A stretch of 64,000 nt of DNA from an uncultured Candidatus Saccharibacteria bacterium (GTDB lineage Bacteria; Patescibacteriota; Minisyncoccia; Phycocordibacterales; DSPV01), in assembly GCA_964349135.1 (NCBI GenBank), contig CAYGFK010000002.1, positions 7,535-71,534 on the forward strand, read 5' to 3'. Position 1 is the first letter of the stretch, and every line of letters begins with the position of its first letter. Positions 875-61,332 of this stretch are shown here, piece by piece. The notes beneath the pieces are model-generated. The model worked only from the letters and a program-made list of their open reading frames with translations, made no database searches and was not told where the DNA came from. Made by a program: the position numbers and the translations under genes.

Positions 875-3800
875 GTGAATGTGTTACAAAACACAACCAA
901 AAACATATCGTACAAAATCGCTTTTGCGTCTTTAGTTTTTTCATTTCTTTGTAGTCTCTTTCCGATTAGTGCAAGTGCGCAGTCGGCACTCTCGTGCTGG
1001 GGATGGTCTGACACGTCCGGGTGGATGGATTTTGAACCGGACGGCGGGGGTGTGTTCAAGCAGTCTGACGGTAGTATCACCGGATGGGCATGGGCCGACA
1101 ATCTTGGGTGGATAAAATTCGGTGGGCTTTCTGATTTTCCTGTTGGTCCGGGAACTGAGAGTGAGAACGCGTATGTGGACGGCGCTGGCGTGGTGCACGG
1201 TTGGGCGCGTGCGTGCGCAGGGACTGATTCCCAAGATGATGCGATTGCTTCATGGGATTTTGATGAGGGCAGTGGTTTAACGGCTACAGATTCAAGTTTT
1301 TATGAGAATACGGCGACGCTCCAGAACGGCGTAACGTGGGGTGCTGGATATCAAGGTACCGCAGTCTCATTTGATGGCGTAAATGATTATGTCAGTGTTG
1401 TACAGAGCGCGTCGCTCGATAGAATTTATAATAATGGAGGGGGCGGTATGTCCGTCTCATTTTGGATAAAGCCTGATGTGCTTGGAAGCGTTGGAATTAT
1501 GTCTCTTGGACAAGGTTCTGATACTGAATGGGATATATATACGAATGCTGCGGGACGACTTGGTTTTGAAGTTCCTCATGATGGAGGTGGTGTGCTCAAT
1601 GAGCGGTTCGATAATCAGCTCATAGCCGGTCAATGGAATCATTTTGTCATTACGTGGAATGGGAATAACACATCGGCGGCAGGGGTAAGGTTATATCGTA
1701 ATGGGGTGCAACAGCCGTTTAGTTTCGGGTCTAGTGGTGTTGGGAATCCAGTCGATAATTCTAACGAACCGTTTCTGATTGGGACGAATTACGCAGGAGG
1801 GAGCGGATTCGACGGTTCTCTTGATGAGGTGCGTATCTATGATAGGGTTCTTTCCGCTCTCGATGCGGAAACTTTATATGAAAATTCTCTCTCAGGGTTC
1901 ACTCCCGTTTCTGGACAGTGTAATCCTGAAGGGCAGATATATTACTGCGATAAATACAGTCCCCAACCGAACGCATCGTTTCACCACGTGTATGTCGGTT
2001 GTAAGACTGCTCCGTTTACGCTCGATGCGTCAAATTACCTGACCGATTCGCAGTATGAGTGTGTTACGACGGACGAAGGGGCGTGTCTTGAATATTATGA
2101 TTTCGGGCAGTGGTGGTATCTCCCCATTTCCAATTCTTTCAGTGAAATTGCACCATCGGTGTGCTCTTCCTCAGGGTATACAACGCTTGGATACACGAAA
2201 TTTCAATGCGATTCTGTCGATGATATTTCTCGCGCGGACGGATGGGATGGCTGGATTAGTTTGGAGGGAGATGGGTACGCGATGTCCTATCTTGCGGGAG
2301 TTAACGCACTTACCGGATGGGCATGGGGAAGCGACGTTATCGGCTGGTTAAATTGCGTCAGTGATTGTGAACTCCTCGCGTCGTCCGGTGGCGTTGTCCT
2401 CGAATCATTTTCTACGCAGAGGTCACATCAGCAAGTTACGGTGACGAACAATACCTATGCGACGGCGCCGGCAGTTCGTATTTCATATAACCCGGTGTTA
2501 AATGTGACAGCGCCGAATGTGTACAATGTTACGCCGTGGAATAATAGCGGTACCGACAATGTCGGCCGTGTGTACTTTCAGCATAATTACCCGCTTGCCC
2601 CAGGCGAGTCAGTGACATTCGACGCACAATTTTCTCATCCGGTGGGTGGAGGGCCGAGCGTGGTTGTCTACACACTTGACCCTGCCAGTGCTATTCCGGA
2701 ACCCGAACTTTCTCCTAGTGCAATCCCTGTGGCATCAACGGTAACGGTAGGAAGCGGATATGTTTCAGTGGCATTCACGACATTAAGTGGCAGATGGTAT
2801 GCAATTCAGTATCGCGACGGCCCCACTGACTCATGGCATACGGCGTTTGGACGGAACAGCGGTTCCGCGATGTTGTTTGGTAGTGGAAGTTCTGGTTTTT
2901 GGCTTGACCGAGGAGCTCCTCATACAAAATCGCTCCCGTCTCCTGCAAGTGTTCGTGAGTATCAAGTCTATTTACTTCCGACAACAGGTGATTTCGGAGG
3001 GTCAGGTGCCGGTGGTATTTTCCCTCCACTTGCGTGTAATGGTCCGACCACCGAGCTCTCGGTGGTGCCGGGTGTATGTGACATCGGGGATGCGACTCAA
3101 TCTGAAGTAAATGCGCTTCTCTTCATCGAATCGGCAAGTCCTGTTACCTATAACTCACTTACAGGCCTGTACTCGCAGGATGTGACCGTTTCTAATAACA
3201 CCGGCAGTGCACTTCCCGGTATTCGATTACGAGTAACCAATTTGACGTCAGGTACCCTCTGGAATCCTTCCGGAAATGACGGAACCTATAACTTCCTGCA
3301 ACATAACTATGCGGTACCACATGGTGCGTCGGTGACCTTCCGCGTCCTTATACAGTCCGCGTCACTCCCGCTCCCGTCGTATTCTGTCTTGGCGGTTGCG
3401 AGTTTGTCGGAGCCGTCCCTTCCATCCGGGTCTGCACTTGTGACGATAGGAGCACTCGAGTATCAGAGTAGCTCAAATCAAACCATCTTGAAGTGGACGA
3501 GCGAGGCGGGTTACTCGTATACCATTCAGTATACCGATGACGGCGGAACCACCTGGCGAACCATGTTTGGTCTAAATAGCGGTTCGGCGGTTCCTCAACC
3601 ACTGCCTGTGGCGGGAAGCGGTTACGCTCAACAGACTATCGACCTCGGTTCGCCGATTTCACAATCGCCTCCAACAGGTACACGTGTGTATAGGATGTAT
3701 AAATTCCTTAGTGGCAATAATTCCATTCCTTCGGTTTCCGCAAGCTACACGATACCGATGTTGCCGACGACCATGAGTCTTTCATGGGACCGTGTTGCCA

Positions 3801-4996
3801 CCTTTGAAAATGATGTTGGCCAGACAATTCCTGTCGAGGGGTATTATGTGATGAGGTCTGGCGGTAGTCAGTCAGCGAAGTTCTTCGTTGCTAATCCGCC
3901 GAGCGGTTCGACGGTTACCTACACCGACCGTGGTCTAAACCCAGGAGGAATCTACTCTTACTCGGTGTCGATTGTCGGAGGAGGAGAAGAATTCCCGCCG
4001 GCAAATACGGTTTACCAAGCCGCGCCGGATAATTGTTTGGAGGTGCACCGTGTCGATAATTCGCTGTCTCCTATAGGAGGAACGAAGACACGTCTCGATA
4101 GCACTGATGTTTTTGATTTTGACCTCGGTACCGATAACCCTAAAGTCTTTATCAATATTTCTGAGACGACTCATACGGTTGACGTGACTGAACTAACCGG
4201 ACAATCGGTTGTTGCCGGAGTGTGCGCGCATCCGCGTGATGGAGATTGCACACCGGCATTTACCGCGCCTATAACCGACCTTGGCACGTACCTGCGTTCT
4301 TCATTTACTCATCCCGTTCCGAGTCATTACCTCGGTTACATTACCAAGTTCGTGTTCAAGTATGGAAACTTTCCGGCGCCACAGAGTGTGACCGGAGTGC
4401 CTCAGTGTCAAGATGAGAGTTTGATTATTGCGAGGATTGTAGTTGAATGGGACCCTCCAACACCCGCACCAACGAGTTATGAAGTTGATGTAAAGAGACT
4501 TGGCGTGTCGCTCTCAGGATACCCAGTCAACGTAGGTACGTCTCTAATTCATACAATTCCCAATATTACGATAGCCGGTACCTATGATATCTTTGTGACG
4601 GCAATCCATGCCGGTGGGAATGCGGTAAGCGGGGTTTCTGTTGCGGTTGTTCCTGAGACCATTTGTACTCCTAACGACCTTGTTGCCCTTTCATGCACGT
4701 TTTCACCGGCTAATTCGACAACACTTCCTGTCGTTGGAAGACCTTTGGAGTTTCAGGCCTATATTACAGGCGGTACAGAACCATATACGGTGCGGTGGCA
4801 GGACAGTGACGGTCTTGATTTTACTCAAACGGAAGTTTATGGAAGTGAGCAAACGCTCACCAGAGTTTATTCACGCGTAGGAAAGAAGTCTCTCGTCATT
4901 ACGACAACCGATTCAGAAGGCGAAGTAGATATTTGCGCGCTTAGTGTTACTCAAGGGCCCGACCTCAAGCTGACGCCGGTATTTGATGAATATTAA
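875..4996 (+). CDS. Giant secreted cell-surface protein (1373 aa) with LamG/concanavalin-A-like lectin domain and C-terminal PKD-like domain
   Basis: Signal peptide (…FPISASAQS). LamG-type signature 'GSLDEVRIYDRVLSALDAETL'. Ser/Thr/Gly/Asn-rich β-rich repeats. C-terminal 'YTVRWQDSDG…SLVITTTDSEGEVD' is PKD-like. Confidence 0.75.
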   Translation: MNVLQNTTKNISYKIAFASLVFSFLCSLFPISASAQSALSCWGWSDTSGWMDFEPDGGGVFKQSDGSITGWAWADNLGWIKFGGLSDFPVGPGTESENAYVDGAGVVHGWARACAGTDSQDDAIASWDFDEGSGLTATDSSFYENTATLQNGVTWGAGYQGTAVSFDGVNDYVSVVQSASLDRIYNNGGGGMSVSFWIKPDVLGSVGIMSLGQGSDTEWDIYTNAAGRLGFEVPHDGGGVLNERFDNQLIAGQWNHFVITWNGNNTSAAGVRLYRNGVQQPFSFGSSGVGNPVDNSNEPFLIGTNYAGGSGFDGSLDEVRIYDRVLSALDAETLYENSLSGFTPVSGQCNPEGQIYYCDKYSPQPNASFHHVYVGCKTAPFTLDASNYLTDSQYECVTTDEGACLEYYDFGQWWYLPISNSFSEIAPSVCSSSGYTTLGYTKFQCDSVDDISRADGWDGWISLEGDGYAMSYLAGVNALTGWAWGSDVIGWLNCVSDCELLASSGGVVLESFSTQRSHQQVTVTNNTYATAPAVRISYNPVLNVTAPNVYNVTPWNNSGTDNVGRVYFQHNYPLAPGESVTFDAQFSHPVGGGPSVVVYTLDPASAIPEPELSPSAIPVASTVTVGSGYVSVAFTTLSGRWYAIQYRDGPTDSWHTAFGRNSGSAMLFGSGSSGFWLDRGAPHTKSLPSPASVREYQVYLLPTTGDFGGSGAGGIFPPLACNGPTTELSVVPGVCDIGDATQSEVNALLFIESASPVTYNSLTGLYSQDVTVSNNTGSALPGIRLRVTNLTSGTLWNPSGNDGTYNFLQHNYAVPHGASVTFRVLIQSASLPLPSYSVLAVASLSEPSLPSGSALVTIGALEYQSSSNQTILKWTSEAGYSYTIQYTDDGGTTWRTMFGLNSGSAVPQPLPVAGSGYAQQTIDLGSPISQSPPTGTRVYRMYKFLSGNNSIPSVSASYTIPMLPTTMSLSWDRVATFENDVGQTIPVEGYYVMRSGGSQSAKFFVANPPSGSTVTYTDRGLNPGGIYSYSVSIVGGGEEFPPANTVYQAAPDNCLEVHRVDNSLSPIGGTKTRLDSTDVFDFDLGTDNPKVFINISETTHTVDVTELTGQSVVAGVCAHPRDGDCTPAFTAPITDLGTYLRSSFTHPVPSHYLGYITKFVFKYGNFPAPQSVTGVPQCQDESLIIARIVVEWDPPTPAPTSYEVDVKRLGVSLSGYPVNVGTSLIHTIPNITIAGTYDIFVTAIHAGGNAVSGVSVAVVPETICTPNDLVALSCTFSPANSTTLPVVGRPLEFQAYITGGTEPYTVRWQDSDGLDFTQTEVYGSEQTLTRVYSRVGKKSLVITTTDSEGEVDICALSVTQGPDLKLTPVFDEY

Positions 4997-6026: not shown

Positions 6027-6314
6027 ACAAATCCTTTCTTAGTTGCGAGTAGCCCAGCCACTCTTTGTATTTAATTTTGAGGTCCTGTTTCTAGTTCAAC
6101 ACTACCACAAGAAAAATACTTTGAAAAGGTCTGTCAAGGCCGAAATATGGCTAATCTACGTGTGAAGATAAGACTTTTCCACAATTTTTCCCCTTGAAAT
6201 GCACTTTTTCTTAGTTTGGAAAATAAGAGCGTGTGGTGCGGATAAACGTTAGTTGTCTAAAGGAAGTTTTATAAGTCGTCGTTTGTTACGCACAGTAAGA
6301 AACGAGCACAATAC

Positions 6315-6323
6315 TGTTATACT
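6315..6323 (+). promoter_or_regulatory. Extended -10 promoter element (TGTTATACT) upstream of pilB
   Basis: TGnTATACT motif about 45 nt upstream of the pilB ATG, in an AT-rich 340-nt intergenic region. Confidence 0.3.
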
Positions 6324-6364
6324 AATAGGTAAGAACGTCATCGAATGCGCCCGTTTCTTCTGAG

Positions 6365-8113
6365 ATGTACATAGAAAAGAAACAACTAAAAGATTTCGTG
6401 CTCGATTCAGGTCTCGTCTCGCAAACGGATTTTGCGAAAGCCGAGAAGGAATCGGAAAAAGGCGGTATTCCGCTCGAGGAAGAGCTTGTGCGCGAGGGAA
6501 AAATCTCCGAAGACGACCTTCGGCGAATGCAGGCCTATGTGCTCGGCATTCCTTTTGTCGACCTCCGAAGCAATAAGATAGATTTTGAGACCCTTTCTCT
6601 TATTCCGGAACCTATTGCACGTTCCAACAATATCGTGGCGTTCCGCAAGACGGACAAAGGTCTTGAGGTGGCGATGCTCGATACATCGGATTTGGGAGCA
6701 ATCGACTTCGTGAAGAAAAAGGTTGACTTGAAGATTTTACCGCGACTGACGAATACGGATTCCATTAAACATGCCCTCTTGCAGTATCAGAAATCGCTCA
6801 AGGCGGAGTTCGGGGACATTATCAAAAAAGAATCCGCCTCCATTAAGACCATTTCTGAGCTTGCCGAGAATGTATCGGAGAAAGATTTGAAGAAGATGGC
6901 TGAAGACCTGCCGGTGGTGCGCATTGTCGATACGCTTCTGAAGCATGCCATTATACAGAACGCTTCGGATATCCATATCGAACAGATGGAGAAGGAGGTT
7001 GTGGTGCGCTACCGGATTGACGGTATTTTGCACGATACCATGGTGCTCCCGAAACATGTCGGCCCATCCCTCGTTGCCCGAATCAAAGTACTCTCGAACT
7101 TGCGCCTTGATGAGAAACGTCTCCCGCAAGACGGACGATTTAAGGTGGAGACAGAGGCCGATAAGGTTTCGTTTCGCGTGTCGATTCTTCCGACCTACTT
7201 TGGGGAGAAGATAGTCATGCGTCTCCTAAAGGAAAATGCAAAAGGATTCACGCTTGAAGGCCTCGGATTTCATGGTCACGCTCTCGAGTCAATCCACGGT
7301 GCCCTGAAAAGCACGACAGGAATTATTCTTACTTCGGGTCCGACAGGGTCGGGAAAGACGACGACGCTGTACACGACACTCGATATTTTAAATACTCCTG
7401 ATGTAAATATTTCGACGATAGAAGACCCGGTTGAGTATCAAATGGCTCGCGTGAATCAGTCACAGGTCAAACCAGAAATTGGTTTTACCTTTGCCTCCGG
7501 ATTGCGTTCGCTTGTGCGCCAAGACCCCGACATTATTATGGTCGGTGAAATTCGAGACAATGAGACGGCAGGGCTTGCTATCAACGCGGCGCTTACGGGT
7601 CACCTTGTGCTCTCGACGATTCATACCAACAGTGCCGCCGGCGCCATTCCACGTCTTTTGGATATGAAAGTTGAGCCTTTTCTTCTCGTCTCTACATTGA
7701 ATGTCGTTATCGGCCAACGGCTCGTTCGTCGTTTGTCCGATTCGGGTAGAGAAAAGCGTTTCTTGGGAAAAGAGGAATTGGAAACACTTTCTAAAACGGT
7801 TGACCTTGACCGCGTCCTCACGTTTCTCAAGGAAGAGAAGATAGTCGACAAGGACCAGGGATGGGAAAAGATACCGTTCTATAAACCGACTAGCTCCAAA
7901 GAAGACGACGGTTATCAGGGACGATTGGTTATCCATGAGGTACTTCGCGTGACGTCAACAATCAGGAACCTTATCATCAAAGGCGCGGTCTCTGATGAGA
8001 TAGAGGCGCAGGCGCGACAGGAAGGAATGATGACCATGCTCGAAGACGGCGTGTTCAAGGCGGTGCAAGGACTCACGACTCTTGAGGAGGTACTCCGTGT
8101 GGTAACTGAATAA
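6365..8113 (+). CDS. pilB: Type IV pilus assembly ATPase PilB (GspE/PilB family)
   Basis: N-terminal GSPII_E-like domain. Walker A GPTGSGKTTTLY. Asp box, His box and Walker B consistent with PilB/GspE secretion ATPases. 582 aa. Confidence 0.9.
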   Translation: MYIEKKQLKDFVLDSGLVSQTDFAKAEKESEKGGIPLEEELVREGKISEDDLRRMQAYVLGIPFVDLRSNKIDFETLSLIPEPIARSNNIVAFRKTDKGLEVAMLDTSDLGAIDFVKKKVDLKILPRLTNTDSIKHALLQYQKSLKAEFGDIIKKESASIKTISELAENVSEKDLKKMAEDLPVVRIVDTLLKHAIIQNASDIHIEQMEKEVVVRYRIDGILHDTMVLPKHVGPSLVARIKVLSNLRLDEKRLPQDGRFKVETEADKVSFRVSILPTYFGEKIVMRLLKENAKGFTLEGLGFHGHALESIHGALKSTTGIILTSGPTGSGKTTTLYTTLDILNTPDVNISTIEDPVEYQMARVNQSQVKPEIGFTFASGLRSLVRQDPDIIMVGEIRDNETAGLAINAALTGHLVLSTIHTNSAAGAIPRLLDMKVEPFLLVSTLNVVIGQRLVRRLSDSGREKRFLGKEELETLSKTVDLDRVLTFLKEEKIVDKDQGWEKIPFYKPTSSKEDDGYQGRLVIHEVLRVTSTIRNLIIKGAVSDEIEAQARQEGMMTMLEDGVFKAVQGLTTLEEVLRVVTE

Positions 8114-24103: not shown

Positions 24104-26278
24104 ATGAACAGAGATTACCCCTTAGACAGAACACGCAACTTCGGCATCATTGCGCACATCGATGCAGGTAAAACAACCACATCGGAGCGCATTCTTTTCT
24201 ATACCGGCTCATCGCACAAGATTGGCGAGGTGCATGAAGGAGAGACGGTTACTGACTGGATGGAACAGGAACGTGAACGGGGTATCACTATTACCGCCGC
24301 CGCTATCACGTGTTTCTGGACGCCGACGTATGCTCGAGTTGGCGAAGGTGGTATTGTTGGCGCTTCGAGTAAAGATGACTCACAGAAACATCGTTTCAAT
24401 ATTATAGATACCCCGGGGCACATCGATTTTACGGCCGAAGTGAAGCGCTCAATGCGTGTGCTCGACGGCGCCATTGTCGTCTTCGACGGTGTTGCCGGTG
24501 TTGAACCCCAGTCCGAAACCAACTGGCGGTACGCTGAAGAAGGTCTCGTTCCGCGCGTTTGCTTCATCAACAAACTCGACCGTATGGGCGCGTCATTTGA
24601 AAAATCGTACGCTTCAATTCTCGACAGACTTTCAAAGAGCGCGGTGCGGTTCCAGATTCCGATGGGGCTTGAGGAAGACTATAGAGGCGTTATCGACCTT
24701 CTCAAGATGAAAGCATTTACGTTCGATGGGAAAATGGGAGAGATTGTGAAGATGGAAGAAATTCCTGCGGAGTTTTTGGAAGAAGCGAAGAAGTATCACA
24801 ATGAACTTGTTGAGAAAGTGGTCGAACACGATGAGGTGCTTATGAATGAGTACTTGGAAGGGAAAGAAATTTCAGTTGAAGCGCTTGTAAAGGCGACTCG
24901 TAAAGGAGTAATTGCAAATAAACTCTTTCCGGTTTTTTGTGGTTCAGCCCTTAAGAATAAGGGTGTCCAGCCAGTACTCGATGCTGTCGTCGATTATCTG
25001 CCGTCTCCGCTCGATGTCCCTGATATCCACGGAATTCATCCGGTAAGTGGCGAGACAATTTATCGCAAGGCGTCTGATTCGGAACCATTTTCAGCACTCG
25101 TCTTTAAATTACAAACCGACCCATTCGTTGGCCAGCTCTCTTTCTTCCGTGTCTACTCAGGAACGGTAGAGGCGGGAAGCTATATTTATAATTCCACGAC
25201 GAGACAGAAAGAGCGCCTCTCTCGAATCGTTCGTCTGCAAGCTGATAAGCGAGAGGAGGTGAAGAAAGTCTTTGCCGGTGAAATTGCCGCAGCGGTTGGT
25301 CTCAAGGATTCAAAGACTTCGCACACGCTCTGCGATGAGAAGCATCCGATTATTCTTGACCCTATCCAATTTGCCGAGCCGGTTATCTCACTTCGCGTTG
25401 AGCCGAAAACAAAACAAGACCAGGAAAAAATGGGCTTTGCGCTCAAACGTCTCTCCGATGAGGACCCGACCTTTAAGATTACGTCAGATTCGGAAACTGG
25501 TGAGACGGTTATGTGGGGCATGGGAGAGCTTCAGCTTGAAATTATGGTTGACCGTATGAAGCGAGAGTTCAAGGTAGAAGCAAATGTTGGTAAGCCACAA
25601 GTTGCCTACCGTGAGACCGTCACGGGGACCGCTGATGCGGAACATAAATACATCAAGCAGTCCGGCGGTCGTGGTCAGTATGGTCACGTAAAACTTTCAA
25701 TTCGTCCGATGAAGCCTCTTGTGGAGGGAGCGAAGATACCGAAGAACGTAACACGTGAAGACCATTTCGAATTCATCGACTCCATTAAAGGAGGTGTGAT
25801 TCCGCAAGAGTTTATTCCTGCGGTTGAAAAGGGAGTTCGTGAAGCAATGGACCGTGGTATTGTCGCAGGCTATAAACTGGTAGATATTTCTACCGAGCTA
25901 ACATTCGGTTCTTACCACGACGTCGACTCATCGGAAATTGCCTACAAGATTGCGGCAGTACAAGCATTTCAAGATGCAGCAATGCGAGCAAGGCCCGTGT
26001 TGCTTGAACCGGTTATGAAGGTTGAAGTTGTTGTTCCTGAAAAATTCATGGGTGATGTGACGGGGGACTTGAGTTCGCGACGAGGACAGATTGAGGGTAT
26101 GGATGAGCGCGGTATGAATAAAGTCGTCAATGCAACGGTTCCGCTTGCTGAAATGTTCGGCTATATCACCAACCTTCGTTCAATGACTGAAGGCCGTGGT
26201 AGCTTTAACATGGAATTTGAACGGTACGAGATTGTGCCGGGAAATGTGGCGCAGACCATAATTGAAGCCAGGAAATAG
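24104..26278 (+). CDS. fusA: Elongation factor G
   Basis: AHIDAGKTTT G1 motif, DTPGHIDF; 724 aa. Confidence 0.95.
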   Translation: MNRDYPLDRTRNFGIIAHIDAGKTTTSERILFYTGSSHKIGEVHEGETVTDWMEQERERGITITAAAITCFWTPTYARVGEGGIVGASSKDDSQKHRFNIIDTPGHIDFTAEVKRSMRVLDGAIVVFDGVAGVEPQSETNWRYAEEGLVPRVCFINKLDRMGASFEKSYASILDRLSKSAVRFQIPMGLEEDYRGVIDLLKMKAFTFDGKMGEIVKMEEIPAEFLEEAKKYHNELVEKVVEHDEVLMNEYLEGKEISVEALVKATRKGVIANKLFPVFCGSALKNKGVQPVLDAVVDYLPSPLDVPDIHGIHPVSGETIYRKASDSEPFSALVFKLQTDPFVGQLSFFRVYSGTVEAGSYIYNSTTRQKERLSRIVRLQADKREEVKKVFAGEIAAAVGLKDSKTSHTLCDEKHPIILDPIQFAEPVISLRVEPKTKQDQEKMGFALKRLSDEDPTFKITSDSETGETVMWGMGELQLEIMVDRMKREFKVEANVGKPQVAYRETVTGTADAEHKYIKQSGGRGQYGHVKLSIRPMKPLVEGAKIPKNVTREDHFEFIDSIKGGVIPQEFIPAVEKGVREAMDRGIVAGYKLVDISTELTFGSYHDVDSSEIAYKIAAVQAFQDAAMRARPVLLEPVMKVEVVVPEKFMGDVTGDLSSRRGQIEGMDERGMNKVVNATVPLAEMFGYITNLRSMTEGRGSFNMEFERYEIVPGNVAQTIIEARK

Positions 26279-26284
26279 GAAAAA

Positions 26285-26317
26285 GCCCCCGTCCGCTTCA
26301 GCGAACGGGGGCTTTTT
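26285..26317 (+). terminator. Intrinsic terminator after fusA
   Basis: GCCCCCGTCCGC/GCGAACGGGGGC hairpin + T5. Confidence 0.75.
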
Positions 26318-26538: not shown

Positions 26539-27531
26539 ATGTCTCTTTTTGACAAAGAAGTCAGTACCGAAATCGATGAAATGGGAGATGCGCTTTCAAA
26601 AAGCGCTCGAGACCTTTTCAACGGTCTTAATGAGGAGATACATCCTCGCCACATGGAAGAGGCGAGCATATCGGCTGTTTCGGTTTTGATGCTCATGTTC
26701 ATGCTTTCGCTTGCAGTGCCTTATGTCGATAAAAGTTCGACACCGGCAGCGCTTGCGATGTCATCGACTGAGACGTCGGTGAAGGCCATTTCAGCAAGTG
26801 CGCTCACCGAAGAGCAGATTACGTCGATACTCGGATTGCTCAAATCGTTCAATGCCGATGATGCGCTCGTCAATAACGTCAATGCGGCACTGCGAGGTCA
26901 TAAGCCCGCAGCCGTTGCTGCCGTACGATTTTGTCATGCGTTTGCCCGAGACCTTCGGGTCGGCGATAGTGGGGAAGATGTCTCTGCGCTACAAAAAGCG
27001 TTGCGCGAGGGAGGATTCCCAACTTCTGAATCAGGTGATTTCGATGAACCTACCGCATCTGCTGTAGTGCAATTCCAAGAAAAATATAAAGACGAAGTCC
27101 TCACTCCGCATCAGCTAAGTCGGGGTACAGGGTATGTCGGGTCTGCTACCCGCTCAAAACTCAACCTACTCTATCGATGTCAGAGTTCACTTGAAGGCAC
27201 ATCGACGAGTGGTAAACCTTCGACTAGCACCACGACTACTGGTGAGGCCACCAATCGTCCGATTGTGACTGAACAGGTGAAGTGTGTATTCCATGGAGCG
27301 ACGACCGAACAGAAATGTGTTGGACGTTCAGAACGGCTCGATGCCACCTTTTCATGTAGTGGCGTGGGACGTTGCGTTGCTGAAGTAAAAGGGTATTCAG
27401 GTACGGTGTTGCTGTGGCAGAGTTCATGTAACAGCAATCGGTCATACACGACACTCGACGGGCGAAGCGATTATGCAGAGTTCCGTTGCGCGTCTGACCT
27501 TCCGACAACCACAACTGTCGACGGCTCATAA
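26539..27531 (+). CDS. Membrane/secreted protein with putative peptidoglycan-binding domain and Cys-rich C-terminus
   Basis: TM/signal segment (VSVLMLMFMLSLAV). PG_binding_1-like stretch (GDSGEDVSALQKALREGGF…ASAVVQFQEKY). C-terminal 8 Cys. Confidence 0.55.
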   Translation: MSLFDKEVSTEIDEMGDALSKSARDLFNGLNEEIHPRHMEEASISAVSVLMLMFMLSLAVPYVDKSSTPAALAMSSTETSVKAISASALTEEQITSILGLLKSFNADDALVNNVNAALRGHKPAAVAAVRFCHAFARDLRVGDSGEDVSALQKALREGGFPTSESGDFDEPTASAVVQFQEKYKDEVLTPHQLSRGTGYVGSATRSKLNLLYRCQSSLEGTSTSGKPSTSTTTTGEATNRPIVTEQVKCVFHGATTEQKCVGRSERLDATFSCSGVGRCVAEVKGYSGTVLLWQSSCNSNRSYTTLDGRSDYAEFRCASDLPTTTTVDGS

Positions 27532-27900
27532 TAGTAGAGTACTCATTATTAGGTTATTCATCTAACCGCAATGAAATGAGATTATTAAGCCCTCCAGAGA
27601 TGTTTCTTCTGCTCCCGGCTCCATGCTCGGTCTCTGGAAGCGTGAAGTTTGAAGAAACAAAACCACAAAAGTCTCCCTACTGGGAGACTTTTGCTTTTGT
27701 GGAGGCTGTATCATTGACTTCATGGGCTGTTCTGTTATGATTCTCTTTACCGCTTTATGACGTACGCTCGCCTTATTCTAAGGCGGGTCCGTTACCGCTC
27801 TTTCGGGCGGAGTGGGTTATTAGTCCGTGTAGCGGTTCGAGTCTGGGATACTCTCGTGCCCCAAACCCGAACAGTTACATAAAATTTAACAATAGATATT

Positions 27901-29091
27901 ATGGCTACTTTTGATCGTTCAAAGCCACACGTCAACGTCGGAACCATTGGGCACGTTGACCACGGCAAAACGACTTTGACGGCCGCCTTGCTCCACTCAT
28001 TGGCGCTTGCGGGCCAGGAAGTCAAGCAGAAGAGGGTTGATGAGATTGACAATGCCCCCGAAGAGAAAGCTCGCGGGATAACCATTGCCCTTTCTCACAA
28101 TGAATACTCGACCGTAAATCGTCACTATGCGCACATTGATGCGCCGGGTCACGCTGACTACATTAAAAACATGATTACGGGTGCAGCCCAAATGGACGGC
28201 GCTATTCTTGTGGTTGCGGCGACTGACGGCGTTATGCCCCAGACGCGCGAACACGTGCTTCTCGCAAAGCAAGTTGGCGTTCCGAAGATAATCGTGTTCC
28301 TCAATAAGTGTGACATGGTTGGTGATGCGGAACTTATTGACCTCGTCGAGGAGGAAGTTCGCGAACTCTTGGATAAGCAGGGATTTGACGGAAAAAGCGC
28401 CCCGGTTATCCGCGGTTCTGCTCTTAAGGCACTTGAGGCACCGAGTGTTGATGATGAGTGGGTTAAAAAAGTTCTTGAACTCACGAATACTCTCGACACT
28501 TACATTCCGACACCTGAGCGCGATGTTGTTAAGCCGTTCCTCATGCCGATTGAAGACATTTTCTCGATTGAAGGACGTGGTACTGTCGTTACAGGCCGTA
28601 TTGAACGAGGTGTCGTGAAGGTCGGTGAAGAAGTCGAAATTGTGGGTATCAAGCCGACGAGTAAGACGACGGTCACCGGTATCGAAATGTTCAACAAGCA
28701 ACTTAACGAAGGCCAGGCCGGAGACAACGCAGGTATTCTCTTGCGCGGTACGAAAAAAGAAGATGTGCACCGAGGTCAGGTTCTCTCCAAGACAGGAACC
28801 GTGACTCCGCACACGGAATTCGAATCAGAAGTCTACATTCTTAAGAAGGAGGAGGGGGGTCGCCACACACCGTTCTTCGCTGGGTACAAGCCTCAGTTCT
28901 ACATTCGTACGACGGATGTGACCGGTGAAGTAACGCTTCCGGAGAAAGTTGAAATGGTTATGCCGGGTGATACGGTTACTTTCAAGGTGAAGCTCGTTGC
29001 GCCGATTGCTCTTGAAGAGCAACAGCGCTTCGCGATTCGTGAAGGAGGCAAGACGGTTGGTGCCGGTGTGGTTACCAAAGTCATTGCATAA
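27901..29091 (+). CDS. tuf: Elongation factor Tu
   Basis: [25 protein letters not shown] motifs; 396 aa. Confidence 0.95.
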
Positions 29092-29115: not shown

Positions 29116-29508
29116 ATGTCAGCAACAGCAAAGACAACAAAATCCGCCCAGAAGAAGCCGTCTGCAAAGAAGGCGCCTCGGGCTGTGGCAAAGACGGCGG
29201 GTATATCCAAGCTACGTATTCGGGTTCGTGCGTATGAGCATAAGGTGCTCGATACGTCAGTGAAACAGATTATGGATACGGCGATGCGTTATGACGCCGA
29301 AATTCAGGGTCCGATTCCTCTCCCGACGGAGATTAAGAAGTACACGGTCAATCGTTCATCATTCGTACACAAGAATGCACGAGAGCAGTTCGAGATGCGG
29401 GTGCACAAGCGATTGATTGATATTCTTTCTCCGGCGCCAAAACTTATTGAAGCGCTGACGAATCTCTCACTTCCCTCTGGAGTGAACATAGACGTCAAGA
29501 TGGCTTAA
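29116..29508 (+). CDS. rpsJ: 30S ribosomal protein S10 with Lys/Ala-rich N-terminal extension
   Basis: Core LRIRVRAYEHKVLD…PIPLPT… preceded by about 30 K/A-rich residues. The true start could be the in-frame GTG at about 29176. Confidence 0.85.
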   Translation: MSATAKTTKSAQKKPSAKKAPRAVAKTAGISKLRIRVRAYEHKVLDTSVKQIMDTAMRYDAEIQGPIPLPTEIKKYTVNRSSFVHKNAREQFEMRVHKRLIDILSPAPKLIEALTNLSLPSGVNIDVKMA

Positions 29509-29514
29509 GGAAAA

Positions 29515-29542
29515 ATCGTCCGCTTCGGCGGGCGATTTTTTG
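29515..29542 (+). terminator. Intrinsic terminator directly after rpsJ
   Basis: ATCGTCCGC-TTCG-GCGGGCGAT + T6. Confidence 0.7.
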
Positions 29543-29592
29543 TTTGACAAAGATAGGGTTTCCCGTAACCTTCTTGTTTAGAAAGGAACCTT

Positions 29593-30204
29593 ATGAACAC
29601 ATCAGAAAATGCAGTATCTAGCCCTTCTCTCAAAGGGGAGTATTTCAATTCTCGCGGTCTGGGTACGGATTACGGATTAAATTGCTTTATATGTGACACA
29701 AGACCAACGCATGGTTTACTTCACAATATTGCGGCGTTTGTGCGTACTAAGGAATCAGGAGAGCTCATCGTGAGGGCGTTCAGGTACGGTGCGCGACTTG
29801 ACTACCGCACAGACGAACCTAACTGGATACAGGTGAAAGTTGGTTCGTGCGGTATCCATTTACCCGCCCTCGTGTTACTTGACCGGTCGGTTCGTGAAAG
29901 CTGTGTAATCACCGAAGAGCTCATTGTCCTGGTACGAAACAAAATCATCGACCTGGAGGAACATGGACGGAGAACGCGTGTGAAGGCTCGAGAACTCTAT
30001 CAATTGCGTGAGTTGTCCCGAAGGCAGGATGATTGGAATAAAGCTGTAACGCTACTGACTAAGTTCGGTCGCCCCCCTTCTTACGAAGAGATTAGCAAGG
30101 AGGCCTACGTTTTTTATGTGCGGGCTAGGCACGCGCGTGCCATTGAAGATTGGCTTGATGGAGAGCGGACAGCAGCTCTCCAGACAGACTTGTTCCTCAA
30201 CTGA
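29593..30204 (+). CDS. Hypothetical Cys/His-containing protein (203 aa) inserted between rpsJ and rplC
   Basis: Good SD (AGGAA-N5-ATG). No recognisable family. Bracketed by terminator-like hairpins (29515-29542 upstream; 30233-30272 and 30307-30325 downstream). Confidence 0.6.
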   Translation: MNTSENAVSSPSLKGEYFNSRGLGTDYGLNCFICDTRPTHGLLHNIAAFVRTKESGELIVRAFRYGARLDYRTDEPNWIQVKVGSCGIHLPALVLLDRSVRESCVITEELIVLVRNKIIDLEEHGRRTRVKARELYQLRELSRRQDDWNKAVTLLTKFGRPPSYEEISKEAYVFYVRARHARAIEDWLDGERTAALQTDLFLN

Positions 30205-30232
30205 GCGCACCCCCTCTTCTTATAGGCACTCA

Positions 30233-30272
30233 AAAGCCCTGCTCGATGAAATCGAGCAGGGCTTTACATTTC
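30233..30272 (+). terminator. Hairpin (AAGCCCTGCTCGAT/ATCGAGCAGGGCTT) with weak U-tract downstream of the inserted gene
   Basis: Perfect 14-bp stem with GAAA loop. Confidence 0.45.
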
Positions 30273-30347
30273 CCTCGGGTTTTGCTACCGTATCGGAATC
30301 ACAAATGAGCCGTAGGGCTCTTTTTAGTCGGGTCGTGATACTCTACC

Positions 30348-30944
30348 GTGAAATTTATTTTGGGTAAAAAAGTGAATATGACTCAAATTTTTACCGAAGA
30401 CGGAACGGTTGTTCCGGTGACGGTTATTTCTGCGGGTCCTGTTACGGTTACCCAGGTGAAGAATAAGGAAACGGACGGCTACGAGGCGGTACAGGTTGGG
30501 TTTCTCCCAACAAAAGCGAATGAAACGGAAAAGTCGGTGGCTAAGCGATATTCATATCTTAAAGAGTTTCGTGGCACGGACGCAGGTCTTAAAGTTGGGG
30601 ATACTATTGATGTCTCCACCTTTGCGACAGGTGATACGGTTGAGGTCATTGCGACTTCGAAAGGAAAGGGATTCCAGGGCGTGGTGAAGCGCCACGGTTT
30701 CGGTGGCGGACGTCGAACGCACGGTCAGAAGCACTCTGAGCGTGAAGCGGGCTCTATTGGAGGCGGAGGACGAGCTGGGGGCCGTGTAGCGAAAGGTATG
30801 CGCATGGCAGGCCGTATGGGCAGTGACCGTGTCACGGTAAAGAATCTTGTTATCGCGGACGTCGACCCTGTCGGGAAGCTTCTTCTTGTTCGTGGAGCTG
30901 TTCCCGGACGTCGCGGTACGCTTGTTGAAATAGTGAATAAATAA
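30348..30944 (+). CDS. rplC: 50S ribosomal protein L3 (GTG start)
   Basis: …LGKKVNMTQIF… L3 signature. Confidence 0.9.
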   Translation: MKFILGKKVNMTQIFTEDGTVVPVTVISAGPVTVTQVKNKETDGYEAVQVGFLPTKANETEKSVAKRYSYLKEFRGTDAGLKVGDTIDVSTFATGDTVEVIATSKGKGFQGVVKRHGFGGGRRTHGQKHSEREAGSIGGGGRAGGRVAKGMRMAGRMGSDRVTVKNLVIADVDPVGKLLLVRGAVPGRRGTLVEIVNK

Positions 30945-32895: not shown

Positions 32896-32899
32896 AAAA

Positions 32900-32932
32900 A
32901 GCCCCGTTCTGCACAGCAGACGGGGCTTTCTT
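32900..32932 (+). terminator. Intrinsic terminator between rplB and rpsS (inside the S10 operon)
   Basis: AGCCCCGTTCTGC/GCAGACGGGGCT hairpin + U-rich tail. Confidence 0.6.
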
Positions 32933-32971: not shown

Positions 32972-33025
32972 TTGACATGAATTCGCCTTGTGCTAGTATG
33001 CCACAACGCTCTTAAGGGAGCTCGT
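32972..33025 (+). promoter_or_regulatory. Promoter-plus-leader-hairpin module, copy 1 (TTGACA-16-TGCTAGTATG-AACGCTC…GAGCTCGTTTTT)
   Basis: Near-consensus -35 and extended -10, followed within 10 nt by a hairpin + T5. Paralogous to 37707-37762. Confidence 0.5.
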
Positions 33026-37706: not shown

Positions 37707-37762
37707 TTGACACCCCACCTTCCCTTTGCTAGTATGGCGAAACGCTCTAAGGAGCGTTTTTG
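37707..37762 (+). promoter_or_regulatory. Promoter-plus-leader-hairpin module, copy 2 (TTGACA-17-TGCTAGTATG-AAACGCTC-TAAG-GAGCGTTT + T5)
   Basis: Same architecture and near-identical -10/hairpin sequence as 32972-33025. Confidence 0.5.
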
Positions 37763-56024: not shown

Positions 56025-57609
56025 GCGCCAACGTGGTGGAAGGAAAGTTTTAACCGGAGAAGTAGAGCCAGCTAACACAAAAGCGCTTGGCTATTGCAGG
56101 GTATCGTCTTTAACTCAAGCTACGGATGGACATGGTCTAGATAGCCAAGAGCATCGTTGTCGAACATTTGCTGAACAAAAGGGACTAGAGATGGTAAAAG
56201 TCTTTCGTGATTCTCATACTGGCGGAGGCGATTTTTGGCAACGTCCGGCCATGAGAGAACTTTTGGAATACGTTGATGCACATCCGACTGAAAGATTCAC
56301 GGTTATTTTCGACGATCTCAAACGATTTGCGAGGGACATCCAATTTCACTGGAAGCTACGAACGGAGTTTAGTGCTAGAGGTATTACACCAGCATGTCTG
56401 AACTTTAATTTCGAAGATACACCGGAAGGGGGTTTTATAGAAACAGTAATGGCTGCGCAGGGTGAGCTAGAACGAAAACAAAACCGGAGACAGGTGATGC
56501 AAAAACAAAAAGCTCGAATGGAGTTAGGGTATTGGCCATTTGCCGCTAGGAAGGGTTACACATCAGTAAAAGACCCTCTTCATGGAAAGATATGTAAACC
56601 AAACGCAGGAGGGGAAATATTGGCTGAAGCATTAGCTCTGTTTGAGAACAGGACACTCTTGCGTAAGGTTGACGTTGCCCGTTTCTTGGTCGAGAAGGGA
56701 TTCTGGACTGGTCAGAAACCAGAGAGATATATCGATAAGGTATCACACATACTGCAGGATCCTTTTTACTGCGGGGATATGGAGTATCCCGCATGGCAAG
56801 TAAAACGCAGGACAGCAAAACATGTGGGAATTATCACCAAGGATACTTTTGAGCGAATTCAAAAGCTAATAAGGCGAGAAACTACATTGAAGCGTATCCG
56901 TTGGGATATTTCGCCAGAGTTTCGTTTGAGGGGTTTAATTCTTTGTGACCATTGTGGCAATCATCTCACAGCTGCCTGGTCAAAGAAGACATTCCCGTAT
57001 TACATCTGTCATACAAAGGAATGTGAACGCTACGGCAAATCTATTCGCCGGGATGATATTGAAGGCCAGTTTGACATATTACTTCAGCAAAACACTTTGA
57101 AGCCCGAAATTGGTACTGTTGTCGGACTTGTCTTTGAGAGAGTTTGGGCGCAGGAAATTAATACCATGAAAGTAGAGGTCTTGAATCAAGAGGGTGAGAT
57201 TAGAATGCTTCAAGATAAGGTATTACAACTTACCGATGCCGCCTTGAATGCAAAATCTGCACAGGTAAAAGCTGTTTATGAGCAACAAATAGAAACTACT
57301 GCTGATGAGATCAACGAAATCAAGTCCCGATCGCCATTAGTTCCAACAGACCTAGCTATTCCTTATCGAACTGCCCTTGATAAAGCAACCGGATTACTTA
57401 AAAGCCCATATAAGATATGGCAAAACCTCAATGTTGTTGAGCAACACAGTCTTTACTACTTCGTTTTTGAGGAGAAATTACGATATAACCAAGTCTCTGG
57501 TTATCGAACTGAAAAATCCTCAAGTGCCATAAGGCTCTTTGAGGATTTTGTCAGTAAAAACTCCCTAGATGTGGAGATGGGCGGAATCGAACCGCCGTGC
57601 AAAGAGTAG
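55984..57609 (+). CDS. Large serine recombinase (resolvase/invertase catalytic domain + recombinase domain + zinc ribbon)
   Basis: Catalytic 'GYCRVSSLTQ' Ser motif. Central recombinase domain. C-terminal Cys cluster CDHCGNHLTAAW…YYICHTKEC. The 3' end overlaps the tmRNA 3' end. Confidence 0.85.
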   Translation: MSLPNQGRIRRPPKRQRGGRKVLTGEVEPANTKALGYCRVSSLTQATDGHGLDSQEHRCRTFAEQKGLEMVKVFRDSHTGGGDFWQRPAMRELLEYVDAHPTERFTVIFDDLKRFARDIQFHWKLRTEFSARGITPACLNFNFEDTPEGGFIETVMAAQGELERKQNRRQVMQKQKARMELGYWPFAARKGYTSVKDPLHGKICKPNAGGEILAEALALFENRTLLRKVDVARFLVEKGFWTGQKPERYIDKVSHILQDPFYCGDMEYPAWQVKRRTAKHVGIITKDTFERIQKLIRRETTLKRIRWDISPEFRLRGLILCDHCGNHLTAAWSKKTFPYYICHTKECERYGKSIRRDDIEGQFDILLQQNTLKPEIGTVVGLVFERVWAQEINTMKVEVLNQEGEIRMLQDKVLQLTDAALNAKSAQVKAVYEQQIETTADEINEIKSRSPLVPTDLAIPYRTALDKATGLLKSPYKIWQNLNVVEQHSLYYFVFEEKLRYNQVSGYRTEKSSSAIRLFEDFVSKNSLDVEMGGIEPPCKE

Positions 57610-57965
57610 GAAACCAAGCGTCTACGTAATCTAGGGTATCTTTTGTTTTTCGACGAAAGCGCTAGAAGATACACAAAACACGTTCCCGTCTAGTTTCTAA
57701 GGTTCGCGTGTGCGCCGAAACGAGCGCCTACGCTATCCTGAAAATATCATGCCCGCGTCCCGCCTTCAGGAGAGGTGAGGGCGAACACGTCTACGTATTA
57801 TGCGTGGACGAAAGCAAGGTCGTTAACACCAAAATATGGTGAGAGTACGGCCTGTGCCTTTGCAACTGCTGATTTGGCAGTTATAGGTTCCAACCGTTTA
57901 AGGAGTTATTGGAGCTCCATTACGCAACTTAGCGACCGTGCCCTTTGTCTAGGCCGATCATCCCC
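57572..57965 (-). ncRNA. ssrA: tmRNA (ssrA)
   Basis: Minus-strand 5' GGGGAUGAUCGGCC… and 3' …GGCGG-UUCGAUU-CCGCC-CAUCUCC-A. The acceptor stem pairs with a G3·U70 wobble, the AlaRS identity hallmark. Putative tag ORF ends …NDLAFVHA-UAA. smpB is adjacent. Confidence 0.8.
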
Positions 57966-61108: not shown

Positions 61109-61182
61109 CCGCCCTTAGCTCAGTTGGTTAGAGCACGGAGCTTATACCTCCGGGGTCCTTGGTTCGAATCCAAGAGGGCGGA
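61109..61182 (+). tRNA. tRNA-Ile (anticodon UAU)
   Basis: Hand-folded cloverleaf: acceptor CCGCCCT/AGGGCGG, D-arm GCTC-AGTTGGTTA-GAGC, anticodon arm CGGAG-CTTATAC-CTCCG, T-arm CTTGG-TTCGAAT-CCAAG, discriminator A. Needs a tRNAscan-SE check. Confidence 0.65.
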
Positions 61183-61332
61183 CATATATTTGCAGTTGAA
61201 TCGAGTGAACCTTCTATATCATAGATATACCTTGGGGGTGAGAAGCGAACACTTGGAGCTTCGCAAGGTCGGAGTTCGCGAAGGCGAACGAGACGGGGTC
61301 GCGGGATTCGCCAGCGGGCGAATACCCGTGAC

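Follow-up and report, generated by a model that had tools for sequence, protein, structure and literature searches.

The stretch of DNA analysed here (the window, 64,000 nucleotides (nt) from an uncultured Candidatus Saccharibacteria bacterium) carries a 203-amino acid (aa) open reading frame (ORF) between the ribosomal protein genes rpsJ and rplC. On the evidence of its sequence and of its homologues, this ORF is a genuine gene of an undescribed protein family. The reading that we favour, with slightly more belief than doubt, is that it forms an autonomous accessory cassette, situated at an operon boundary that tolerates insertions, and encodes a zinc-stabilised binding module that acts in the interplay of phage and host. 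Such a cassette would consist of a promoter-like site, a ribosome binding site (RBS), a single gene and a terminator, placed at a natural boundary between transcription units; the family would pass between the genomes of large tailed phages and the chromosomes of bacteria as a solitary gene with no fixed partner or position; and the encoded domain would bind a conserved ligand, be it nucleic acid or a conserved protein of host or phage, through the open face of its β-sheet. Four elements of this reading we infer: that the domain binds zinc, that the gene is transcribed on its own, that the protein acts by binding and that the family is exchanged horizontally.

Conservation of the ORF and predicted structure of its domain

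Fifteen homologues with 40-55% identity matched the protein over aa ~14-111, and a profile search over 1.84 billion cluster representatives (clusters at 50% identity) identified at least 643 representatives of the family at E≤1e-3 and 467 at E≤1e-10. When 142 sequences were aligned, 31 domain positions were conserved in at least 80% of them, and the window protein retains 30 of the 31. Three cysteines and a histidine (C31, C34, C86 and H89) are conserved in 98-100% of the aligned sequences, all four being kept in the window protein, and R21, G24, N45, D70, R72, Q80 and K82 are conserved in 98-99%. The identical gene in an identical context was found in three further assemblies (four in all), which makes an assembly chimera unlikely.

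An earlier reading of the window without database searches (the original prediction) had described the ORF as possessing an RBS, Cys/His motifs and a charged C-terminal half, and as belonging to no recognisable family. Each of these descriptions was borne out. The sequence AAAGGA precedes the ATG of the ORF (29593-30204) by 5 nt, the motifs NCFICDTRPTHGLLHN and GSCGIH are found at aa 30-45 and 84-89, 33 of the 92 tail residues are K, R, D or E, and matches to Pfam and NCBIfam models were below threshold. More broadly, nothing over threshold was returned by Pfam, NCBIfam, PHROGs or PADLOC for a set of queries that included the protein, its tail, its relatives and 77 domain sequences. In PHROGs the domain itself was unmatched and only the N-terminal zinc ribbon of one relative (P0006) matched a family, phrog_6504, of unknown function. 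PADLOC assigned 0 families to the window protein and three relatives, no toxin or antitoxin was matched in Pfam, and no ribosomal or translation-factor family was matched in Pfam or NCBIfam. A profile search of the PDB sequences with two family alignments gave chance matches only (E≥0.6). Literature searches on the S10 operon of the candidate phyla radiation (CPR), on insertions in Patescibacteria ribosomal operons, on DUF2934 and on the WDGH domain found nothing relevant.

The conserved part of the protein is a domain of ~100 aa, for which the AlphaFold2 (AF2) models give the topology β-β-α-β-β-α(-β). The predicted order is a strand (aa 19-27), a Cys-x2-Cys loop, a strand (42-49), a helix (53-63), strands 67-72 and 75-85, a Cys-x2-His motif that starts helix 90-103, and a short last strand. 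For the whole protein the predicted local distance difference test score (pLDDT) was 83; for the domain alone, modelled with the 77-sequence alignment, it was 96.5, with a predicted template modelling score (pTM) of 0.88. Structural zinc sites are usually built from four invariant ligands supplied by a knuckle and a helix N-terminus. Conservation and the AF2 models place two ligands of the putative Cys3His site in the knuckle and two at the helix N-terminus, and C31, C34, C86 and H89 most probably coordinate a single structural zinc ion. Along the third and fourth strands, R68, D70 and R72, then Q80 and K82, alternate with hydrophobic residues, so that their side chains should point to the open face of the sheet. 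Together with R21 and N45, these invariant polar residues may form a conserved surface there in the predicted fold.

Structure prediction, which had been proposed as a check on the protein, gave a confident model of the domain and no significant fold match in the PDB. With the domain-only model the best Foldseek match to the PDB had an E of 0.33, with query-normalised template modelling scores (TM-scores) of at most 0.42, and with the full-length model the best E was 0.11. The weak neighbours share a generic two-layer α/β architecture and comprise LAGLIDADG enzymes, PilN, bacterial microcompartment (BMC) shell proteins, an S6 permutant and eIF1/eIF2D. Foldseek against BFVD returned a single significant match, A0A7S5R5G8 (158 aa, TM-score 0.89, E 1.7e-9), and from its length and 34% identity this entry is probably gp015, a family member from a Rhizobium phage.

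The charged tail is peculiar to few members. Most family members are without it and have instead an N-terminal extension of ~80 aa, with the domain at the C-terminus; many of these extensions are Lar-like zinc ribbons or helical segments that bear the motif GLLTCG. The sole detectable relative of the tail, a distant one, is that of the cellular homologue P0148 (BLASTP of the pair, E 3e-12), and a word-indexed search that used only the tail as query gave no match. The tail motif EEISKEAYVFY...IEDWLDGER resembles what we take to be the consensus of DUF2934 (PF11154). This model did not match the window tail, and the P0148 tail scored 15.3 bits (E 0.015) against a gathering threshold of 22. HNH_repeat (PF18780, gathering threshold 26) scored 14.8 bits with the whole protein and 17.9 bits (E 0.004) with the tail alone. 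We know of no function for either family. A DksA/GreA-like design, namely a globular zinc domain joined to a coiled-coil hairpin, was set aside, as the tail is predicted with low confidence and is mostly missing from the family, and there was no GreA or DksA match.

Distribution of the family

Eleven GenBank phage records contain a member of the family. Ten of these are Rhizobium phages of 150-207 kilobases (kb), and the annotated records all say hypothetical protein. Eight IMG/VR contigs also carry the family, six of them 100-260 kb in length. Phage-like contexts were found for P0003, P0013, P0005, P0012 and P0088, and the phage loci are long same-strand arrays of small ORFs with T4 rIIB, SprT-like, Pyr_excise, L5 gp82, DUF5131 or N6_N4 methyltransferase genes. 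On one IMG/VR phage contig (L182, 168 kb) we noted two copies of the domain within 2.5 kb (3737-4426 and 6126-6410).

The cellular members have quite different surroundings: P0148 lies between priA-like and murA/aroA-like genes, P0004 adjoins an HtrA-like protease, P0002 is near a sortase, and P0006 is on a contig of 102-330 kb with GreA, VanW and NYN genes. Across 15 loci there was no shared neighbour of the family genes, and in the loci examined the members outside the window adjoin no ribosomal genes. At the loci of P0006 (L004) and P0004 (L189) the gene is monocistronic, with its own promoter-like box, AAAGGAG and terminator hairpin in each case, and its guanine-plus-cytosine content (GC) is 4-7 points over that of the surrounding locus. 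When 141 sequences were ranked by distance from the window protein, cellular members took ranks 1, 6, 8 and 10 and phage members ranks 59-91. Solitary, partner-less and position-free occurrence of this kind suggests an exchangeable accessory gene of phages and hosts and not a core ribosomal component, and it is as an exchangeable, partner-less accessory gene that the family appears to behave in both phages and cells.

The rpsJ-rplC junction in relatives

The rpsJ-rplC junction is usually regarded as fixed, and the original prediction had treated the adjacency as close to invariant. The window comes from a Parcubacteria/Paceibacterota-like genome of the Patescibacteria. The best matches to its L3 protein came from Parcubacteria/Paceibacterota-type metagenome-assembled genomes, at 60-66% identity, and we surveyed the junction in 134 mostly Patescibacteria relatives for which both rpsJ and rplC were in the fetched DNA. 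The gap between the two genes had a median of ~94 nt, but reached 300 nt or more in 29 of the 134 relatives (22%), 17 of which had gaps of at least 600 nt, which is at odds with near-invariance. We also observed five loci (L052, L076, L077, L158 and L166) with no rpsJ or tuf within 3.5-4 kb 5' of rplC.

The cargo of the long gaps is unrelated from genome to genome. It includes a ParE toxin (L041), HlyIII of the haemolysin-III family (L049), SpoU together with a SAM methyltransferase (L080), ORF6N with a pair of small ORFs (L056), NYN with a peptidoglycan-binding-like protein (L082), a sigma-70-region-4-like protein and several hypothetical proteins. A terminator-like hairpin within 90 nt 3' of rpsJ was present in 18 of the 29 long-gap genomes versus 9 of the 57 with gaps of 40-300 nt. 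Insertions or breaks recur at this junction in Patescibacteria. The comparison of synteny that had been proposed therefore revealed variable contiguity of rpsJ and rplC, and in none of the 134 relatives was a homologue of the 203-aa ORF found there, a distribution that suggests the gene is not ancestral to the S10 cluster.

Transcription signals around the ORF

In the window the gene order, all on the forward strand (+), is fusA (24104-26278), a 330-aa gene (26539-27531), tuf (27901-29091), rpsJ, the 203-aa ORF, rplC, rplD, rplW and rplB. Only 24 nt separate tuf from rpsJ, and the two appear to be transcribed together. The hairpin that had been claimed as an intrinsic terminator after rpsJ is present with a small shift of its coordinates (29511-29540). 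It starts directly after the rpsJ stop codon and is predicted to fold with a free energy (dG) of -21.8 kcal/mol (z -5.4; 0 of 200 shuffles equally stable). Four bases past its end begins TTGACA, a perfect -35 hexamer (Table 1). The two hairpins claimed between the ORF and the GTG start of rplC were likewise found, at 30233-30265 and 30307-30325. The first has a dG of -26.5 (z -8.8) and is followed by an interrupted tail, UUUACAUUU; the stem-loop of the second (30307-30320) has a dG of -9.2 (z -2.7), and this element could be a further terminator or else belong to the rplC leader. The terminator scan, which looked for a GC-rich stem-loop followed by a T-run, called 29511-29540 with its T6 run and 30307-30320 with its T5 run. 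From these signals the ORF is probably a separate, terminator-bracketed, monocistronic unit.

The 143-nt spacer upstream of rplC (30205-30347) is more structured than its shuffles (dG -51.2, z -4.8), most of this structure being its two terminator-type hairpins. Rfam searches of the spacers for leaders or riboswitches returned partial terminator-like matches only, and rplC has no obvious Shine-Dalgarno sequence. By eye, a possible rplC promoter, TTTACA (30263-30268)-N17-TACCGT, can be read overlapping the 3' end of the ORF terminator hairpin; if it were used, the hairpin and T5 run at 30307-30325 would fall within the rplC 5' leader.

Elsewhere in the cluster, terminator/promoter pairs follow fusA, the 330-aa gene and rplB. 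The presence of such pairs at several junctions suggests that the S10 operon is here already split into several units, and the 203-aa ORF would seem to sit at one of the cluster's transcription-unit boundaries. The original picture of an independent unit dropped into the S10 operon was thus half right: the gene does look terminator-bracketed and not ancestral, but the cluster around it is punctuated at other places too.

Table 1. Features at the rpsJ-rplC junction of the window.
Feature	Coordinates	Strand	Evidence
rpsJ (S10, 130 aa)	29116-29508	+	ORF list; Pfam Ribosomal_S10, E 9e-32
Terminator-like hairpin 3' of rpsJ (13-bp stem, UUCG loop, T6 run)	29511-29540	+	Terminator scan; inverted repeat
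Promoter-like site for the 203-aa ORF (TTGACA, 16-nt spacer, TAACCT)	29544-29549 and 29566-29571	+	Read from sequence
Shine-Dalgarno-like AAAGGA, 5 nt ahead of ATG	29582-29587	+	Sequence
203-aa ORF, whole gene including stop codon	29593-30204	+	
Conserved ~100-aa Cys2-Cys-His domain (aa 14-111)	29632-29925	+	Alignments; conservation; AF2
Charged helical tail (aa 112-203), two long helices, lower AlphaFold confidence	29926-30201	+	
Perfect 15-bp hairpin 29 nt past the ORF stop; probable ORF terminator	30233-30265	+	Folding; inverted repeat
5-bp GC hairpin (30307-30320) with T5 run, 22 nt ahead of rplC	30307-30325	+	Terminator scan
rplC (L3), GTG start; then rplD, rplW, rplB	30348-30944	+	ORF list; MKFILG... 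N-terminus matches relatives

Origin of the gene and alternative explanations

The absence of the gene from this site in all relatives, the scattered distribution of the family and the variability of the junction together argue for horizontal acquisition at the rpsJ-rplC site. No flanking direct or inverted repeats, transposase or integrase were found around the ORF, a scan of 29400-30450 for a transposable or integrative element found only terminator hairpins and short chance-level repeats between the flanking rpsJ and rplC, and there is no paralogue of the ORF in the window. The proposal that the gene is the cargo of a selfish element finds no support in these results.

Several observations weigh against an acquired, self-transcribed gene for a binding module. 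The ORF has a GC of 0.493, a GC at third codon positions (GC3) of 0.498 and a codon-usage distance of 0.348, all typical of the window genes, so that the description of the gene as foreign is not upheld by its composition; a host-like composition would be compatible with a donor that was a phage of the same host. L3 scans of GTDB genomes and metagenomes gave no near relative lacking the gene (best L3 identity 66%). The TAACCT -10 hexamer of the ORF is weak and under threshold, and the site is absent from the promoter scan calls. The domain is near neutral (family median isoelectric point (pI) 6.6, net charge -1), which is atypical for nucleic-acid binders, and the neighbour-joining grouping in which the window protein is nearest to cellular members has no support values.

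Placement between two highly conserved genes could also reflect a free-standing, homing-endonuclease-like selfish gene, that is, a new zinc-stabilised nuclease that would cut near rpsJ/rplC and copy itself there. The seg and mob genes copy themselves in this way between conserved genes of T4-like phages, and the family has members in large phages, T4-like Rhizobium phages among them, with two copies on one phage contig. Invariant acidic and basic residues beside the zinc motif, the HNH_repeat match of the tail and the prevalence of LAGLIDADG enzymes among the weak Foldseek neighbours point the same way. However, the HNH_repeat score is under the 26-bit cut-off and belongs to a tail missing from the rest of the family, and the LAGLIDADG matches reached an E of only 0.28-0.45 at best, with probabilities of at most 0.3 and no match in Pfam. 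HNH models were unmatched by the window protein and by the 77 family members, among which no nuclease family was detected, and the histidine before the invariant N45 is present in some members only, so that the HNH catalytic histidine is missing. None of the 134 relatives has the gene at this site, and in related phages its place is constant, with no pattern of presence and absence. We consider a homing nuclease unlikely. A ribosome- or translation-associated factor (of the assembly, hibernation or initiation type), whose position would express functional coupling, strikes us as quite improbable. Its attraction is the location of the gene between two ribosomal protein genes, along with a β-β-α-β-β-α-β topology that is common to small ribosome-binding folds and very weak Foldseek matches to eIF2D/eIF1-type (SUI1-like) proteins, the S6 permutant, ribosome recycling factor (RRF) and Prp; these matches are non-significant, with E≥1 and query-normalised TM-scores of at most 0.36. 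The lack of a homologue at the junction in the 134 relatives counts against such coupling, as do the plainly unrelated cargo that other genomes hold there, the relatives that lie in phage early-type arrays or beside unrelated housekeeping genes and never beside ribosomal ones, and the hairpins that separate the ORF from both of its ribosomal neighbours.

A zinc-finger regulator of the rplC-rplB unit, or of its own gene, might instead act through the structured spacer, and the short hairpin and T-run just 5' of an rplC without a clear Shine-Dalgarno sequence would suit such a role, as would the basic tail (pI 9.45) and the putative zinc domain of the protein. Yet that structure is mostly two terminator-type hairpins, no Rfam leader was found in the spacers, the protein matched no DNA- or RNA-binding family, and family members elsewhere are not beside ribosomal genes; we regard a regulator of this kind as very improbable. 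The ribosome-associated factor and the novel regulator had both been offered by the original prediction, and in its terms position was what they had to go on. That the ORF is a decaying remnant, acquired once and since deprived of expression, is scarcely credible: the weak -10 hexamer and the orphan sequence of the tail would fit decay, but the frame is intact over 203 codons behind a good RBS, 30 of the 31 conserved positions and all four Cys/His residues are retained, and four independent assemblies give one and the same sequence. A bolder reading takes both the fold of the domain and its functional class to be new and makes it a small zinc-stabilised effector, swapped between large phages and CPR bacteria whose polar face acts on a universal target (the ribosome, the translation machinery or a conserved nucleic acid) and whose position in the S10 cluster is functional. 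This we regard as a long shot.

Other features of the window

The 330-aa PG_binding_1 protein encoded between fusA and tuf belongs to a hairpin-bracketed unit of its own (hairpins at 26280-26317 and 27666-27693), and with its gene the str/S10 region contains two accessory genes. In the rpsJ-rplC gap of L082, a 325-aa ORF (2813-3790) has motifs that, judged by eye, are visibly like those of this protein. Downstream, rplB is followed by a terminator-like hairpin (32897-32932) and then by a strong promoter-like sequence, TTGACA-N16-TAGTAT with an upstream TG (32972-32999), ahead of rpsS; the same promoter form also occurs at 37707-37735.

Two of the ribosomal proteins have N-terminal extensions that were unaligned to relatives in TBLASTN, namely a Lys/Ala-rich extension of ~30 aa in S10 (MSATAKTTKSAQKKPSAKKAPRAVAKTAG..., 29116-29215) and one of ~35 aa in L23 (31644-31750). 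A transfer-messenger RNA (tmRNA) gene lies at 57569-57965 on the reverse strand (-), with the tag peptide AKSAVAKAQAVLSPYFGVNDLAFVHA, and a tRNA-Ile gene with the anticodon TAT (UAU) at 61109-61183 (+). A tRNA remnant 5' of tuf (27780-27860), suspected from the T-arm-like sequence GGTTCGAGTCT, was unsupported by ARAGORN and Rfam and was discarded.

Significance and comparison with known systems

The comparative data take away much of what had been the headline surprise, the break of an ultra-conserved adjacency. About one in five Patescibacteria genomes holds unrelated cargo between rpsJ and rplC, frequently together with an added terminator 3' of rpsJ. Such variability bears on the organisation and regulation of ribosomal operons in reduced genomes, and it matters where ribosomal-protein synteny serves as a check on the quality of metagenome bins. 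The family itself is sizeable, has no Pfam model, PHROG annotation or PDB structural neighbour, and is common to jumbo-size phages and bacteria. Since cultivable representatives exist in the RHph_TM30 group of Rhizobium phages, its function is experimentally accessible. If the target proves to be a conserved host machine, the family would be a new phage-host interaction module; otherwise it would be one more conserved hypothetical protein.

Among known systems, the LAGLIDADG homing endonucleases share with the domain a two-layer α/β architecture and β-β-α repeats and are its commonest weak Foldseek neighbours, but query-normalised TM-scores of at most 0.38 and the lack of a LAGLIDADG motif limit this to a resemblance of topology. 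Treble-clef and zinc-ribbon sites resemble its putative zinc site in design, with a Cys-x2-Cys knuckle in a β-hairpin loop and a Cys-x2-His at a helix N-terminus; in our domain, unlike in those, the ligand pairs are ~50 residues apart, with a strand, a helix and two strands between them, and no zinc-finger family was matched. A named counterpart is gp015 (YP_010670800.1, 158 aa) of Rhizobium phage RHph_TM30 (Kleczkowskaviridae), which has the same domain (TBLASTN 37.6% identity, E 1e-11) but differs in its N-terminal extension and lacks the charged helical tail. Its gene is surrounded by nucleotide-metabolism genes in a phage genome of 207 kb, and gp015 is likewise uncharacterised. As a genetic unit, the 203-aa ORF differs from the moron and islet cassettes of phages in that it resides in a bacterial ribosomal cluster and not in a prophage, and in that it has no compositional deviation. 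It is like them in the arrangement of a promoter-like site, an RBS, one gene and a terminator hairpin between two conserved genes, and in having relatives that stand as solitary genes at unrelated positions in phages and chromosomes.

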